Shown: positions 54,464-59,081, counted from the first letter of the stretch. The stretch is DNA of 64,000 nucleotides from an uncultured delta proteobacterium (GCA_963804165.1 CAWDPO010000008.1:81894-145893); one strand, 5' to 3'. Numbers and translations: made by a program. Notes: generated by a model not told the origin, from the letters alone.

Positions 54464-55351
54464 TTATTTCGTCGTATATCTTTGCGCTTCACTGTCCGCC
54501 ATTGACTCCAATTCGCTAAGAACCTGCTCGATCAGTTGCGGTTCCATGCTGCTCATTTGTTCGGCGCTAATCGCCTGCGCCATCCCGGCGACCGTGGGTC
54601 GATCGAACAAAGCGTGTATGGGTAAATCGGCGTGAAATACCGCCCCGACGCGAGAAAGAATTCTTGCGGCTCCGAGCGAATGGCCGCCTAGATCAAAAAA
54701 ACTATCCTCAACTCCGACCCGATCGAATGCCAACACTTCGGCCCAGATGGCGGCGAGCTCGCGCTCGATCGGCGTTCGCGGCGCAGTGTACGGATTATCG
54801 AGCTCAGGGCGGATACTGCCGGGTTCCGGCAGTCGCAGACGATCGATTTTCCCGTTGGGCGTCAGCGGCAGCGCGTTGAGAATCACGAACGTAGAGGGGA
54901 TCATCGGGCTGGGCAGGCGAGCGGCGAGGGCCTGTCTCAGGGCGCCGCTCGTAGGCAACGTCTGCCCATCCGGCACGACATACGCAACGAGATACGCATC
55001 TCCGGCCTCGTCCTGCCGGTTGACTACGACGGCGTCCTTGACGCCGCCAGCCTCGCGCAACATCGCCTCGATCTCACCTACACCGACGTTGTAGCCTCTG
55101 ACTTTGACTTGGAAGTCTTTCCGGCCGTGATATTCCAGACAGCCGTCAGGTCGCATTAGGCCCAGATCTCCGGTGAGATAAATTCGAACTTCGGGATCGT
55201 CCGGGTCAGACAGAAACTTGGCCTCCGTAAGATCCGGCCTCCGCCAGTATCCCGGCGAAAGAAAACGACTCCTGACGGCGATCTCGCCAACTCTGTCTCT
55301 TCCGACCAATGCCCTTTGCTCGTCGAGCACTAGCACTTCCCGGTCGCGCAC
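54464..55351 (-). pseudogene. 5'-truncated NRPS module (adenylation C-terminal half plus PCP)
   Basis: YLTGDL, GRKDFQVKVRG, LPLTPNGKIDR, FFDLGGHSL; N-terminal A-domain motifs missing; the break abuts the repeat at 55363. Confidence 0.88.
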
Positions 55352-55362
55352 GCGCAGCCGTG

Positions 55363-55414
55363 TCAGACTTGCCTAACTCTACTAACTCGGGGCAAGTCAA
55401 AAGACTCCCGACCC
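55363..55414. repeat. Solo copy of the transposase terminal repeat forming a hairpin
   Basis: TCAGACTTGCCTAACTCTACTAACT (24/25 identical to 56746..56770) followed by cggGGCAAGTCaaaagactcccgaccc; GACTTGCC/GGCAAGTC stem. Confidence 0.85.
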
Positions 55415-55470
55415 GTTTTTCGCTCCGCGATTCACCAGGGCGGGCACTGCCCGATGCTGTGGCCTCCGCT

Positions 55471-56526
55471 CTACGGCTGCGGCAACGGATCCGCGCCGGA
55501 GAGCTTGTTGAACAAGTCCACCGTTTCTCGGTCGCGGGGCAGCTCGCGAATCGCTTTCTCGAGCTCCTCCGCCGGCAGCGGGTCGGGCTCCTCGCCGACC
55601 ATCTTTCTGAATTCCGCTTTGAACTCAGGATCGGCAAAAGTCTTGCGCATCGCGTCGCGCAGAATCTTGACCTTATCTGGTGCCGTTCCCGGAGGAAGAA
55701 GGAAAGGAGTTCCCGCGCTGACAAAGGCCCTTTGCATGGCAAGAAGCTTTCGCTCCTTTTCCGATTTCGTCAATCGTTCGATATCGGGCAGCTGAGCAAA
55801 GACGGGATGAGGGTGTCTTCGCCCTCTCGGAACCTCGTTGACGAGATGAAAGTCCACCAGCTTCTTCTCGATCCAGTCGGGCGCTTGTCGCACTAGCGTT
55901 GCCTGGATGGTCCATCGGGCGTCGAGCTCGCCTTGCATCATGGCCAGATTGACTTCGTCGCCTTGGGCAAATCCGGTAATGAACTTCGGCTCCTTCATGC
56001 CGAGCACATACGCGGAAATGCGGCCCATGTTGTAGAGGTTATGTCCGACCGACTGAGCGCCGATGCGCACGCCTGAGGAGCCGCGGAGCTTTTCGATGCT
56101 GTCGAGGCGCGCCTCCTTACGAGTCACAAAGATGTAGGGCTCGCCGCTGGTCGGAGATCCGAGGTAGTGGAGTTTGTCGATGTCGTAGAGAACTCCGCTC
56201 AAGCCGAGCACGGCCGCCGGCACGAAGCTCGACAGCATGACCCCCATGGTCAGCCCGTCCGGACGCGCCCTGTAGATATAGTTTCCGGCCTTGCGGGATC
56301 CGCCGCCCGGCATGTACTCGATGACGAAGGTCGGTCTTCCCGGTATATACTTGCGGAGAACGGCAGCGGTGGCTCTGAACCGCAGATCCACCGTGCCTCC
56401 CGGACCGCCTCCATAGACGACGTTGATGGTCTTGCCCTGATAGAACGGAGCTTGAGCGAATCCGTATCCGGGCATCACGAAGCCAGCCAGCAGCGCCAAG
56501 AAAATCAGAACAGCCAATTTTTTCAC
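55471..56526 (-). CDS. Tripartite tricarboxylate transporter substrate-binding protein
   Basis: GTG start with GGAGG RBS; FYQGKT, YIPG.P, MPGGG, PDGLT, PGT.PDKV. Confidence 0.85.
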   Translation of the reverse strand: MKKLAVLIFLALLAGFVMPGYGFAQAPFYQGKTINVVYGGGPGGTVDLRFRATAAVLRKYIPGRPTFVIEYMPGGGSRKAGNYIYRARPDGLTMGVMLSSFVPAAVLGLSGVLYDIDKLHYLGSPTSGEPYIFVTRKEARLDSIEKLRGSSGVRIGAQSVGHNLYNMGRISAYVLGMKEPKFITGFAQGDEVNLAMMQGELDARWTIQATLVRQAPDWIEKKLVDFHLVNEVPRGRRHPHPVFAQLPDIERLTKSEKERKLLAMQRAFVSAGTPFLLPPGTAPDKVKILRDAMRKTFADPEFKAEFRKMVGEEPDPLPAEELEKAIRELPRDRETVDLFNKLSGADPLPQP

Positions 56527-56745
56527 GGCAACCTCCTTCGCGGTTTCACGGAAGGACCGAGTGGATTCCCGAGCCATCGGCAACGGCTCCAACCGATGAA
56601 TGTCTGACGCTATTGTTAATGGACAGTTGTGAAGGTCTAATCATCGCACCCCCAATGTCAATATCGGGAATCTGGTCGGTCATTTCGATACACGCAGTGA
56701 CAGCTGGTAGGAAAGCTCGCCTACGCTCCAGTGTGCGCAATTGCG

Positions 56746-57657
56746 TCAGACTTGCCTAAATCTACTAACTTAATTCTTCTGCAGGGCACGGCTGACGTTG
56801 GATGGATGGCAATTAAGAAAATTCGCTACCTGAGAAGCAAGGTAGCCCTGCTCCAACACGGCTTCGCGGATGAATCGATCCCGGGCCTCTACGACGGTTG
56901 CCAGCCGGCCCTTGCGAAGCAATATCTCGGGCGAAAGTCCCGCCTTGTTGCCACACTCTTAAGTAGGTCCTTCAGCGACGCACGCCGGGAGACGGGCAAA
57001 TGGACTGTTTCTTTAGCGATCTTCTTAACGAAGCGCTCCGGTCCTAAAAATGGCGCCCCATCTCCGGGATGCCATTCTGCTCGATAATTCACTTTCGCTC
57101 CATCCCGGATAAACGCTTCATAACGAGCAGCTGTCCTCAACTCGCCCATCACTGGTCCCGAGTCGATCAGCCCGCGTTTTTCCTTTCCCAAGTATTCTCC
57201 GTGCCCGCTCCATTGCCATTCGTTGGGCCGCTTGACCATTGTAGCCCTGACCGGATTCAGATGAATGTAACGGACCAATTCCAATAAATAGCTATCCCGA
57301 TCGCATACGATGGCCTTGTAGCGCCCCTCAAACAAATGCCCCCGCCGGTGGTGGATCTTGTTAAAGCGTCGGACGTACCCGGTCAGCAGCGATTGCAGAA
57401 TCCTGGCCGTCGGGAAGCGATGGACCTCCAACAACAAATGAAAGTGGTTCGACATCAAGACATAGGCGTAGAGAGAGAACGGGTAGCGTTGACGCACGGT
57501 CCGAAGCGCTTCGATGAAGCCCTGATAGTCGCTTTGGCTGAGAAAAATCTTCTGCCCATCATTGCCGCGGGCTAACACGTGATAAAGCAATCCTTCGGCA
57601 TGAACTCGGGCGTGACGCGGCATCGCTATCATGAGTTAGTAGATTTAGGAAGTCTGA
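56746..57657 (-). mobile_element. Compact ~912-bp element: HUH/Y1 transposase gene bounded by 24-25 bp inverted repeats
   Basis: Left TCAGACTTGCCTAAATCTACTAACT (56746-56770); right AGTTAGTAGATTTAGGAAGTCTGA (57634-57657). Confidence 0.85.
56770..57632 (-). CDS. RAYT-like (IS200/Y1 HUH) tyrosine transposase with C-terminal HTH (frameshift near 56946)
   Basis: MPR.AR..YHV.ARGN, YVLMSNHFHLL (HUH), GHLFEGRYKA, RYIHLNPVRA (catalytic Y), WSGH; corrected C-terminus ...EARDRFIREAVLEQGYLASQVANFLNCHPSNVSRALQKN*. Confidence 0.92.
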
Positions 57658-57761
57658 TCACCACTAGCTGCCTAGGTTTCTTCAATGCACCGGCTAGGCG
57701 CGAGCATCGAGAAACAAGCAGAGCTAAAGCATAGCGCTTGATATACGGGTTGGCTTGGCTA

Positions 57762-59081
57762 CTACCCGTCAATGCCGTGCTGATTTGTCCTGGCTCGGGC
57801 AAGTGCCGTTCGGCGGCCCTCCTCACGTAAATGCCAGCCGAGTCCCCCAATCAGCAGCAGACAGGTAACCAGAGTACTGCCCGCCGCCTGTAGCGGCCGA
57901 AACGCAGGGAGCGGGATTGTGAAAGTGAGAGGAACAAGGGAAACCCAGAACCAGCTCCACCGTCTGAGGCTGGCGGAGCTTGCCGGCGCTGCGGTTAGCA
58001 CAAGATGCAACGCCATGACCAAGGGATAGAAAAGCCATACGAAAAAGTAGGTGAAGGCAAGTGGCGTAAAGATGAGTATCAGCAGCAGAAGAATGGCATG
58101 CTCAAGCGCATCCGACCGATCAGTTCGGTTGTTCTGAGCCGGCATGCAGATGATATACAGCAGGCATAGACCCGCAGCGGCGATCAAAACAACCGCAGTT
58201 ACTTGCCTAAAATCCAAGTCTGCTACATTCACGAACAACGTTTCGTCCTTTTTTCGGTGAGCGTTGACCGGGCGAAGAAGGCGATGCGCGACGGCGACCA
58301 GGGAGTGATTGGCCCAACTAAAGCCACGCCGCTCACGTTGAGAGATCGAGCCGGCCTCGTAACGCGTCATTCCTTCTGTCCACGTCTTAAGGTCCTGAAG
58401 GTTACGATCGTAGCCGCGAAATGGCGCCGGGACTGCGATGAGAAACAAGATCAGGAATGCCAAAGTTGAGATAGTCGCCTTCCAGTATCTGCGGTATACC
58501 AGGTAACCGATCGCCAACACGGGAAACGCCTTGATAGCAGTCGCTAGTGCGATCAGAGCTCCCGCTGTCCATGCCTTTTGCCTCCGTAGGCAAGCAAAAG
58601 CTCCTAGCATGAGCGCCAAGAGAAAAAGGTTCGGTTGCCCCAGCGCAAAGTTCTCTGCCGCATAAGGCAGGCAACAGACGGCGGGCAAAAGATAAAGCAG
58701 AGGGGTAGCGGGCGTTAGAGTACCGGTAACAAGATACACACAAAGCAGAGCAGAAGCGATCCATGCAATTGAGTACAACAGGACTAGAAGGATGATCAGC
58801 GGCAGTTCGCCGAAATAGCTCGGAATCGCGAAAAGAGTGGCAGCCGGCGGAGGATACATGAACTGAAATGTTCCATCGCCTCGATGCCAATATATATCAT
58901 CACCGCGAATCACACTCTGCCCGACCTCGAAATACGTCGCGTAATCTTTGGCGCTTCCGCGTAAGTAATTAGCGATGGGCCAAAGAGCGAGAATCGCGGT
59001 GGTGACCGCCAAAAAAATTATGACTACTTTGGATAGTTTCAAATTAACTGAATACATAGCGTCATAACCTTCCCATGCCAA
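57762..59081 (-). CDS. Glycosyltransferase family 87 (DUF2029-type GT-C membrane protein)
   Basis: D..TY, FMYPP, GQPN, ALATAIK.FP, NHSL; many TM segments. Confidence 0.85.
   Translation of the reverse strand: MAWEGYDAMYSVNLKLSKVVIIFLAVTTAILALWPIANYLRGSAKDYATYFEVGQSVIRGDDIYWHRGDGTFQFMYPPPAATLFAIPSYFGELPLIILLVLLYSIAWIASALLCVYLVTGTLTPATPLLYLLPAVCCLPYAAENFALGQPNLFLLALMLGAFACLRRQKAWTAGALIALATAIKAFPVLAIGYLVYRRYWKATISTLAFLILFLIAVPAPFRGYDRNLQDLKTWTEGMTRYEAGSISQRERRGFSWANHSLVAVAHRLLRPVNAHRKKDETLFVNVADLDFRQVTAVVLIAAAGLCLLYIICMPAQNNRTDRSDALEHAILLLLILIFTPLAFTYFFVWLFYPLVMALHLVLTAAPASSASLRRWSWFWVSLVPLTFTIPLPAFRPLQAAGSTLVTCLLLIGGLGWHLREEGRRTALARARTNQHGIDG

Follow-up and report, generated by a model that had tools for sequence, protein, structure and literature searches.

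Genes resembling those of the REP-associated tyrosine transposases (RAYTs; REP, repetitive extragenic palindrome), but carrying long TIRs (terminal inverted repeats) that bear no relation to REPs, have been described under the names TIRYT, for the gene product, and TIRtron, for the whole unit (Di Nocera, De Gregorio and Rocco 2013, BMC Genomics 14:522, PMC3733652). The passages of that paper that deal with TIRYTs state that TIRtron ends in the main group, and in that group only, share the motif GGGGWSAS, that some TIRs overlap the ends of the gene, and that single genomes may contain several TIRYT genes, each with its own repeats. Here we describe a locus at positions 56745-57657 of a 64,000-nucleotide stretch of DNA from an uncultured delta proteobacterium (GCA_963804165.1, CAWDPO010000008.1:81894-145893; the window, to the whole of which all plain coordinates refer). 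The locus is probably a decayed copy of a TIRtron: a mobile element of about 0.9 kb whose single gene, encoding a TIRYT, lies within its own TIRs of about 26 bp. The source is a metagenome-assembled genome (MAG), 81% complete with 5% contamination, in an assembly of 7.5 Mb; its contigs are designated C, homologous loci L and other genomes G.

Twenty of 26 TIRYTs have been placed within subclass 2.1 of the TnpA_REP-like proteins (Quentin, Siguier, Chandler and Fichant 2018, BMC Genomics 19:475, PMC6006769). In the sections of that paper devoted to group 2.1.2, its members have a C-terminal Bac_DnaA_C, HTH_23 or HTH_28 domain, lack REPs nearby, and show a patchy taxonomic spread like that of mobile elements. 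RAYTs proper are present in one copy per genome, are vertically inherited and are treated as domesticated in the sections consulted of Bertels et al. (2017), which contain nothing on TIRs or helix-turn-helix (HTH) tails. TIR, DnaA and subclass 2.1 are not mentioned in Corneloup et al. (2021). In a literature search the term TIRYT turned up in just three papers, and experimental work on TIRYTs was not found.

The left inverted repeat of the window element lies on the 3′ side of the gene at 56745-56770 (plus strand; GTCAGACTTGCCTAAATCTACTAACT); in other genomes, too, homologous elements have this sequence at their borders. The right inverted repeat, on the 5′ side of the gene at 57634-57657 (minus strand), is the same as the left arm at 24 of 25 aligned positions and differs from it by a single 1-nt gap (CTTGCC versus CTT-CC). 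The arms share a perfectly complementary 16-nt core (56755-56770 with 57634-57649). The chance expectation in 100 shuffles of the window was 0, both for a 26-mer with up to three mismatches and for a 16-mer with up to two. Between the arms, on the minus strand, lies an open reading frame (ORF) of 247 codons as present (56889-57632), with a Pfam match to Y1_Tnp (E 3.8e-10). Together with a tail in another frame, the transposase gene occupies 56770-57632 and fills the element, as the initial annotation had claimed. The same annotation had placed the first ATG 1 bp from the right repeat and, once one frameshift was repaired, the stop codon in contact with the left one. Both statements were borne out: the first ATG is 57630-57632, separated from the right arm by base 57633, and base 56770 is at once the last base of the TAA stop (56770-56772) and the innermost base of the left arm. 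The conserved start, though, is the second ATG (57621-57623, MPRH...), which was found in six of six aligned homologues and in eight aligned homologous loci.

The gene is frameshifted. Its first frame matches intact homologues as far as ...SLKDLLKSVA, and homology then changes frame within 56946-56952 (minus strand), where on balance either one base has been lost or two have been gained. The remainder, NKAGLSPE...SRALQKN, is matched by the second frame (56773-56955), and the HTH tail is encoded in this shifted frame at 56770-56958 on the minus strand (...NKAGLSPEILLRKGRLATVVEARDRFIREAVLEQGYLASQVANFLNCHPSNVSRALQKN). Beyond about 56949 the ORF itself is out of register and continues for 29 unrelated residues to a stop. 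Two further lesions were found. The right arm lacks one base (CTT-CC) that is present in the left arm and in all relatives, and the spacer that separates the conserved start from the 5′ arm (57624-57633, minus strand) measures 10 nt, as against 16-17 nt in relatives (12 upstream regions aligned). The 7-nt deletion in this spacer accounts for the extra in-frame ATG at 57632. Because the tail is out of frame, one arm is a base short and 7 nt are missing before the start, the window copy is probably not autonomous.

It is improbable that the gene is intact in the organism, with the frameshift either an error of assembly or consensus, or a programmed shift that would give Y1-only and Y1-HTH proteins. 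Some insertion sequence (IS) families use programmed frameshifts, and the incompleteness and contamination of the MAG would allow for an error. On the other side, a contig of 151 nt from public run X1 is identical to the window over 56840-56990, frameshift included; the shifted sequence is therefore present in short-read data and is not merely a consensus artefact, although run X1 may itself be the source of the assembly and the depth of the contig is 2. By eye there is no slippery run at the shift, the close homologues listed are mostly single ORFs of 284-288 aa, and the two further lesions of the window copy are not found in relatives. An intact gene of the window's own family was not found in the 81%-complete assembly. 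No public sequencing run contained more than 0.15 of the sampled words, and their contigs span short pieces only; those of RNA run X16 reach only 57749-58000, inside the neighbouring GT87 gene.

The catalytic part of the protein is that of a Y1/HUH nuclease. In the window ORF the HUH motif is H63-F64-H65 and the catalytic-type tyrosine is Y122, within RYIHLNP; the HUH histidines and the tyrosine are invariant across 46 aligned family members. A profile of ten intact homologues matched a single sequence in the PDB, that of E. coli TnpA_REP (4er8_A, E 4.4e-5). The same structure was the top Foldseek match (E 1.2e-7, template modelling score 0.75, target-normalised) of an AlphaFold (AF2) model of a 288-aa homologue that is 94% identical to the window protein (predicted local distance difference test score, pLDDT, 86.4). 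The next matches of this model were the ISDra2, IS608 and IS200 transposases, with E values of 3e-5 to 1e-3.

The tail, modelled alone from the window's second frame, folds as a three-helix HTH (pLDDT 85). In Pfam it matched only HTH_38, below the cut-off (E 0.0095), and not Bac_DnaA_C. A structure search (VIA) returned the DNA-binding domain of DeoR (7bhy_A, Z 7.2, root-mean-square deviation 0.8 over 46 residues), and other matches of fold included KorB/ParB, sigma region 4 and resolvase. DnaA was not among the best 50 matches of this search, which neither supports nor excludes kinship with DnaA domain IV, and Foldseek gave no match for the tail at E ≤0.001. Across the 46 family members, Pfam assigned the tail to Bac_DnaA_C in 11 cases (best E 7e-12), to HTH_23 in four and to HTH_28 in one. 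The window tail is a generic three-helix HTH, and likeness to DnaA_C is confined to longer relatives. Of the DnaA-C/TrpR-like HTH proposed by the initial annotation, the HTH was thus recovered; the DnaA-C likeness belongs to the longer relatives, and TrpR came at rank 28 in the structure search, with Z 4.9.

Flanking repeats were surveyed across the family by running the homologue alignment against a single genome for each prokaryote species. This gave 80 loci, 73 of them with enough flank to test; to count, a repeat had to outscore all 100 shuffles. Among the 59 loci with an ORF of at least 280 aa, 50 carried a G[GT]GTC/GTCAG repeat, three another repeat and six none. Among the 14 loci with a shorter ORF none carried a G[GT]GTC/GTCAG repeat; three had a REP-like palindrome (CACAAGGGGACGGTCCC) and 11 had no repeat. 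The check proposed in the initial annotation thus came out positive, with inverted repeats of the GTCAGAC type beside homologues with an HTH tail at 50 of the 59 longer loci. The host MAGs bear labels that include Binatia, Thermodesulfobacteriota, Nitrospirae, Methylomirabilales, Elusimicrobia, Verrucomicrobia, Kiritimatiellales and Omnitrophota, with one archaeon, so that the TIR-flanked design is conserved across phyla; of the named elements, the closest come from MAGs that bear the labels Binatia, Deltaproteobacteria and Syntrophobacteraceae. The family comprises 38,247 cluster representatives at E ≤0.001 and 16,527 at ≤1e-10, and NCBI and JGI name these proteins only 'transposase' or 'RayT'. 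Matches in plasmids were found in 31 of 72,556 records, all below 60% identity and either unannotated or called 'transposase'. Three homologues of 252-254 aa (L058, L063 and L072) have inverted repeats built on GGGGACGG (CACAAGGGGACGGTCCC in L058) and not of the GGGGTCAG type. Their hosts are MAGs of unrelated lineages (an unclassified bacterium, Moorellales and Syntrophomonadaceae), and they may form a separate REP-like group.

The consensus of the element end, from 51 upstream arms, is (G)G(G/T)GTCAG(A/G)C(C/T)T, in keeping with the published GGGGWSAS, and its outer end lies a median of 63 nt before the start codon. When eight close elements were compared in pairs, identity over the outer 17 nt was 94-100% in each of the 28 pairs (the first 9 nt being fixed by the anchoring), as against 61-97% for the coding sequences. 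The outer half of the repeat (GTGTCAGACTTGCCTAA) is thus more strictly kept than the coding sequence. At their outer ends, close relatives read GTGTCAGA, with one departure from GGGGWSAS, and the arms of the window element read GCGTCAGA and TGATCAGA. More distant relatives read GGGGTCAG, an exact fit to that motif; the window's subfamily has GTGTCAG, whose second base is T. From lineage to lineage the inner half of the arm varies; it often contains two direct units of 6-9 nt with 7-9 nt between them (in the window element CTAA(A)T...CTAACT).

Read in the coding direction, the end motif is TGAC(C/A)C, and its TGA serves as the stop codon of the transposase in 23 of 49 repeat-bearing loci; the reading frame then extends to the very end of the element. 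In most of the remaining loci the stop lies 6-20 nt further inward, still within the arm. Examples of the terminal TGA as stop are L028, L045, L059 and L070 (among L014-L093) and, in the genome of the window itself, C6:99965, C39:55823 and C46:405832. In L014, from the window's own subfamily, the frame also reads through to the TGA of the end motif (...VSRFRQV*).

Single-strand folds of both ends of the window element gave z values of -0.9 to +0.8, no better than shuffles, and no subterminal hairpins were found; REP palindromes with a GTAG-type tag were absent from the flanks of the gene. The initial annotation was therefore right that neither REP palindromes nor hairpins of the IS200 type are present. 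Rfam gave no match at E ≤0.1 within 55000-58500, and a promoter scan of 56600-57900 returned no sigma-70-like sites. In five intact relatives (L014, L015, L016, L025 and L100), TTGCCT can be seen by eye within the arm, as can a TGnTAT-like stretch whose end is 6 nt from the ATG on its upstream side, and the same upstream regions have no Shine-Dalgarno sequence. A promoter within the repeat, giving a leaderless mRNA, would fit this arrangement in the relatives; it carries little weight, being below the criteria of the promoter tool. The window copy has lost this promoter candidate.

Copies of the repeat are scattered through the genome. The window repeat had 13 matches in the assembly, as against 0 for a reversed control, in addition to the right arm, which the scan missed because of its gap; a looser scan added about six more by eye. 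Among the at least 14 copies, only that in the window has a near-complete gene. At C1:69453, C17:32403 and C28:16501 there is a 5′ remnant, consisting of the arm and the first 10-45 codons; at C28:9650, C28:20056 and C23:44304 there is a 3′ remnant, consisting of the last codons and the arm; and the other copies are solo repeats. One of the latter lies in the window at 55362-55387 (plus strand), 1383 nt to the left of the element and beyond a TctC-like gene; it has the orientation of the left arm and matches it at 25 of 26 positions, so that the solo repeat noticed near 55363 in the initial annotation is real. The suggestion made there, that the element arose by insertion of the gene into the loop of such a hairpin site, was not supported: the 8-9 bp stem of the solo copy was matched or beaten by 20 of 200 shuffles, and among the matches listed the other solo copies have by eye no complementary stretch. 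Rather, the six loci in which the repeat is attached to a remnant of a gene end make the solo repeats look like decayed elements, and the window's family in this genome looks like a graveyard.

Fifteen further paralogous loci, at 25-44% identity, and two remnants were found in the same genome, and at least eight of the 15 have their own GGGGTCAG/GTGTCAG-type repeats. One paralogous element, with a TIRYT of 320 aa, is present in three whole copies that are 96-99% identical and have unrelated flanks (C1:179985-180994, C34:158400-159406 and C34:162686-163688, designated C1:180293, C34:158457 and C34:162755; one of them is cut by a contig end). The identity spans from GGGGTCAGACTT to AAGTCTGACCCC, the ends of the repeats, and the same element occurs at other sites in the relatives G037, G012 and G015. 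Judged from the positions and identity of its copies, this paralogue appears to behave like an insertion sequence, unlike the single-copy pattern of RAYTs. Near one copy, at C1:181300-181400, there is another solo end of the GGGTCAGAC type with a tandem duplication (AATTCTTGGGGTCAC / AATTCTTGGGTCAGAC), beside the start of an ORF (MTKRKKYTSEFKREAV...) that we take to resemble IS3-family OrfA.

The complete chromosome of G043, which holds L057 as well as loci L120-L137, contains one full element and 47 partial matches. At five loci the 5′ 20-235 nt are joined to 3′ nt 816-1059 (the last ~240 nt), as in a MITE (a miniature transposable element with inverted repeats), and four of the five share the breakpoint, as expected of an amplified non-autonomous derivative. 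About 35 of the partial matches consist of the last 100-165 nt only. Four of 11 aligned 3′-end fragments have a further segment in common on their upstream side; it opens with the start of an ORF, MLYVGLDYHK..., which may resemble that of IS110-family transposases.

These counts bear on an alternative in which the gene is stationary and vertically inherited, as a domesticated relative of RAYTs, and only the short repeats have spread non-autonomously in the manner of REPINs (REP doublets forming hairpins); gene and repeats together would then not make up a transposon. The disproportion between some ten solo repeats and one near-complete gene of the window's family would suit such a history, as would the short 3′-end pieces that make up most of the 47 partial matches in G043, and TIRs are stated to have formed like REPs, giving 'moderately abundant families of TIRs' (Di Nocera 2013, in the part of PMC3733652 concerned with these repeats). 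We nevertheless consider it unlikely. The six loci that keep both repeat and gene remnant indicate that whole units once stood at several places, the paralogous TIRtron is found as three nearly identical whole units in unrelated flanks, and 15 diverged paralogous loci are unlike the one-copy pattern of RAYTs given in the sections consulted of Bertels et al. (2017). In addition, comparison of 55900-58600 with 30 relatives revealed no conserved synteny around the window copy; only the TctC-like gene is shared.

A decayed TIRtron remains the preferred reading. As in TIRYT/TIRtron units, a Y1/HUH RAYT-like gene is combined with long TIRs in place of REPs, and the repeat overlaps the 3′ end of the gene. 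Copies of the repeat are scattered, several TIRYT genes with their own repeats coexist in one genome, and most relatives have the end motif GGGGTCAG, which fits GGGGWSAS. The window copy differs in being frameshifted with damaged ends, and its subfamily has T at position two of the motif. Its host lineage is not mentioned in the TIRYT passages of Di Nocera 2013, and the likeness is to the description given there and not to the 26 examples directly. With subclass 2.1, and group 2.1.2 in particular, the element shares a long Y1 protein with a C-terminal HTH, the absence of REPs nearby and a patchy spread; the window tail, however, is a 'short' version of the HTH without a Bac_DnaA_C match. Placement in group 2.1.2 rests on these shared features, not on the published profiles or tree.

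E. coli TnpA_REP (RAYT, 4er8) provides the best match of sequence and fold, with the same catalytic motifs, but it has 165 aa and no HTH tail, is present in single copy, and recognises GTAG-tagged REP hairpins as folded single strands. The window element has neither GTAG-tagged REP or REPIN flanks nor the single, vertically inherited copy of a strict RAYT, and its protein falls short of the cut-off of NF047646. The IS200/IS605 TnpA proteins of IS608 and ISDra2 share the Y1/HUH fold and the Y1_Tnp domain, and their elements are likewise small single-gene units with no target duplication seen. Those elements, however, are without TIRs and use subterminal hairpins, and their TnpA has about 130-150 aa; here there are TIRs, no significant hairpins, and proteins of 284-288 aa.

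A Y1 element class distinct from anything described, as put forward in the initial annotation, is in our opinion highly improbable. The rarity of the term TIRYT, the absence of any experimental study from our literature search, and database entries that say only 'transposase' or 'RayT' could make the family appear new. Its defining features, however, are all in the 2013 and 2018 descriptions, in the passages on TIRYTs and on group 2.1.2: a Y1 gene, TIRs in place of REPs, GGGGWSAS, overlap with the gene ends, and a DnaA_C, HTH_23 or HTH_28 tail (PMC3733652, PMC6006769). The class is already known as TIRYT/TIRtron and has been linked to subclass 2.1, and the window element is a decayed new member. 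The subgroup had therefore been defined beforehand, although not with a known mechanism.

Several points weigh against this assignment or against parts of it. The protein scored 78.8 bits against the NCBIfam model NF047646 (REP_Tyr_transpos), narrowly below the cut-off of 80. The TIRYT end motif is described as unlike a DnaA box in the part of PMC6006769 that treats it. Direct subrepeats with at least six matches were found in 21 of 47 inner arms, whereas random 28-mers gave 48 of 470 and shuffles 42 of 470; kinship inflates this enrichment, since a single Desulfobacterales group supplies nine of the 21 positives. No pair of filled and empty sites was found for any of three elements (the window copy, C34:158457 and C1:180293), as homology to relatives stopped within neighbouring genes or the regions had been rearranged, so that movement is deduced from the copies and not seen; nor was a target-site duplication visible in the three copies of the paralogue. 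As to decay, the frameshift is backed by the single depth-2 contig of run X1, an intact copy may sit in the missing 19% of the MAG, and the window copy could still yield a protein of 247 aa whose catalytic domain is intact. Relatives retain one flank of C34:158457 and of C1:180293, whereas the other side is rearranged.

The element and the TctC-like solute-binding gene to its left (55471-56592) are together enclosed by an outer inverted pair, formed by the solo repeat and the right arm (55362-57657). A composite element carrying the TctC-like gene was considered and dropped, because the five relatives with a TctC-like orthologue show no repeat up to 1.5 kb away from it. One of the five, G005, is flagged as unpublished and was used for no other result. 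Homology in this region starts at 55471, the stop codon (for three of these relatives at 55476-55490), and extends to 56538-56561. Further to the left, 54464-55351 is the end of an adenylation/carrier gene resembling those of nonribosomal peptide synthetases. On the other side, 57762-59081 encodes a GT87-family glycosyltransferase-like membrane protein, upstream of the element and on the same strand, which makes read-through transcription possible.

Similar pairings of repeats around other genes were seen elsewhere in the assembly. At C11:187815-191945 (L104, 1315-5448) two inverted solo copies of the window repeat, 4.1 kb apart, stand around a DDE_Tnp_1 transposase gene and an alpha-amylase gene, with two further solo repeats in the next 4.5 kb. 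At C28:16501-20074 (L105, 8502-12075) a 5′ and a 3′ remnant of the window's family are 3.5 kb apart in correct mutual orientation, and between them are unrelated genes (alpha/beta hydrolase, DinB-like and Big_5) and another solo arm. A classical RAYT of 187 aa is also present (C36:78164-78813), flanked by inverted GTAG-type GTAGGATGGGTTGAGC repeats; its presence at C36:78233 means that REP-type and TIR-type Y1 systems coexist in this genome. Repeats of the GTAGGATGGGTTGAGC type numbered three exact and five near copies in the genome, as against five for a control.

By analogy with TnpA_REP and IS200/IS605 TnpA, the HUH/tyrosine domain would cut and rejoin one strand at the terminal G(G/T)GTCAG (TGAC(C/A)C on the other strand). 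The HTH tail, and not a hairpin, would position the enzyme on each end through predicted binding to the lineage-specific inner half of the repeat, and the two arms could pair with each other in single-stranded DNA. Element ends also carry tandem 'stutter' repeats with a period of 5-21 nt, often the heptamer with 5-15 nt, in up to four or five units. These adjoin 25 of 93 ends, as against 31 of 980 control windows (Fisher p 8e-14, a value overstated by kinship); examples in the window's own genome are C1:180994, C34:158400 and C6:99965, with others among L014-L092. Stutter repeats could have been left by successive rounds of cleavage and rejoining, or could reflect a preference for insertion beside an old end.

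We propose tentatively, as a possibility that we do not hold to be probable, that TIRtrons are a currently active IS family of their own. Such a family would combine a Y1 nuclease with an HTH, would be bounded by TIRs, and would move whole units while mobilising MITE-like derivatives. Cleavage would take place at the terminal heptamer TGAC(C/A)C(C), which also supplies the stop codon of the gene, and the stutter arrays would be footprints of cleavage and rejoining. We know of no IS family that is defined by a Y1 nuclease and an HTH together with TIRs. If the arrays are indeed such footprints, the cleavage site would be revealed by sequence alone. The window copy is a dead member and by itself adds little; the comparative set collected around it bears on single-strand transposition, since TIRYTs seem to be the one branch of the Y1/HUH enzymes that has exchanged the recognition of hairpins for an added DNA-binding domain and plain inverted repeats.

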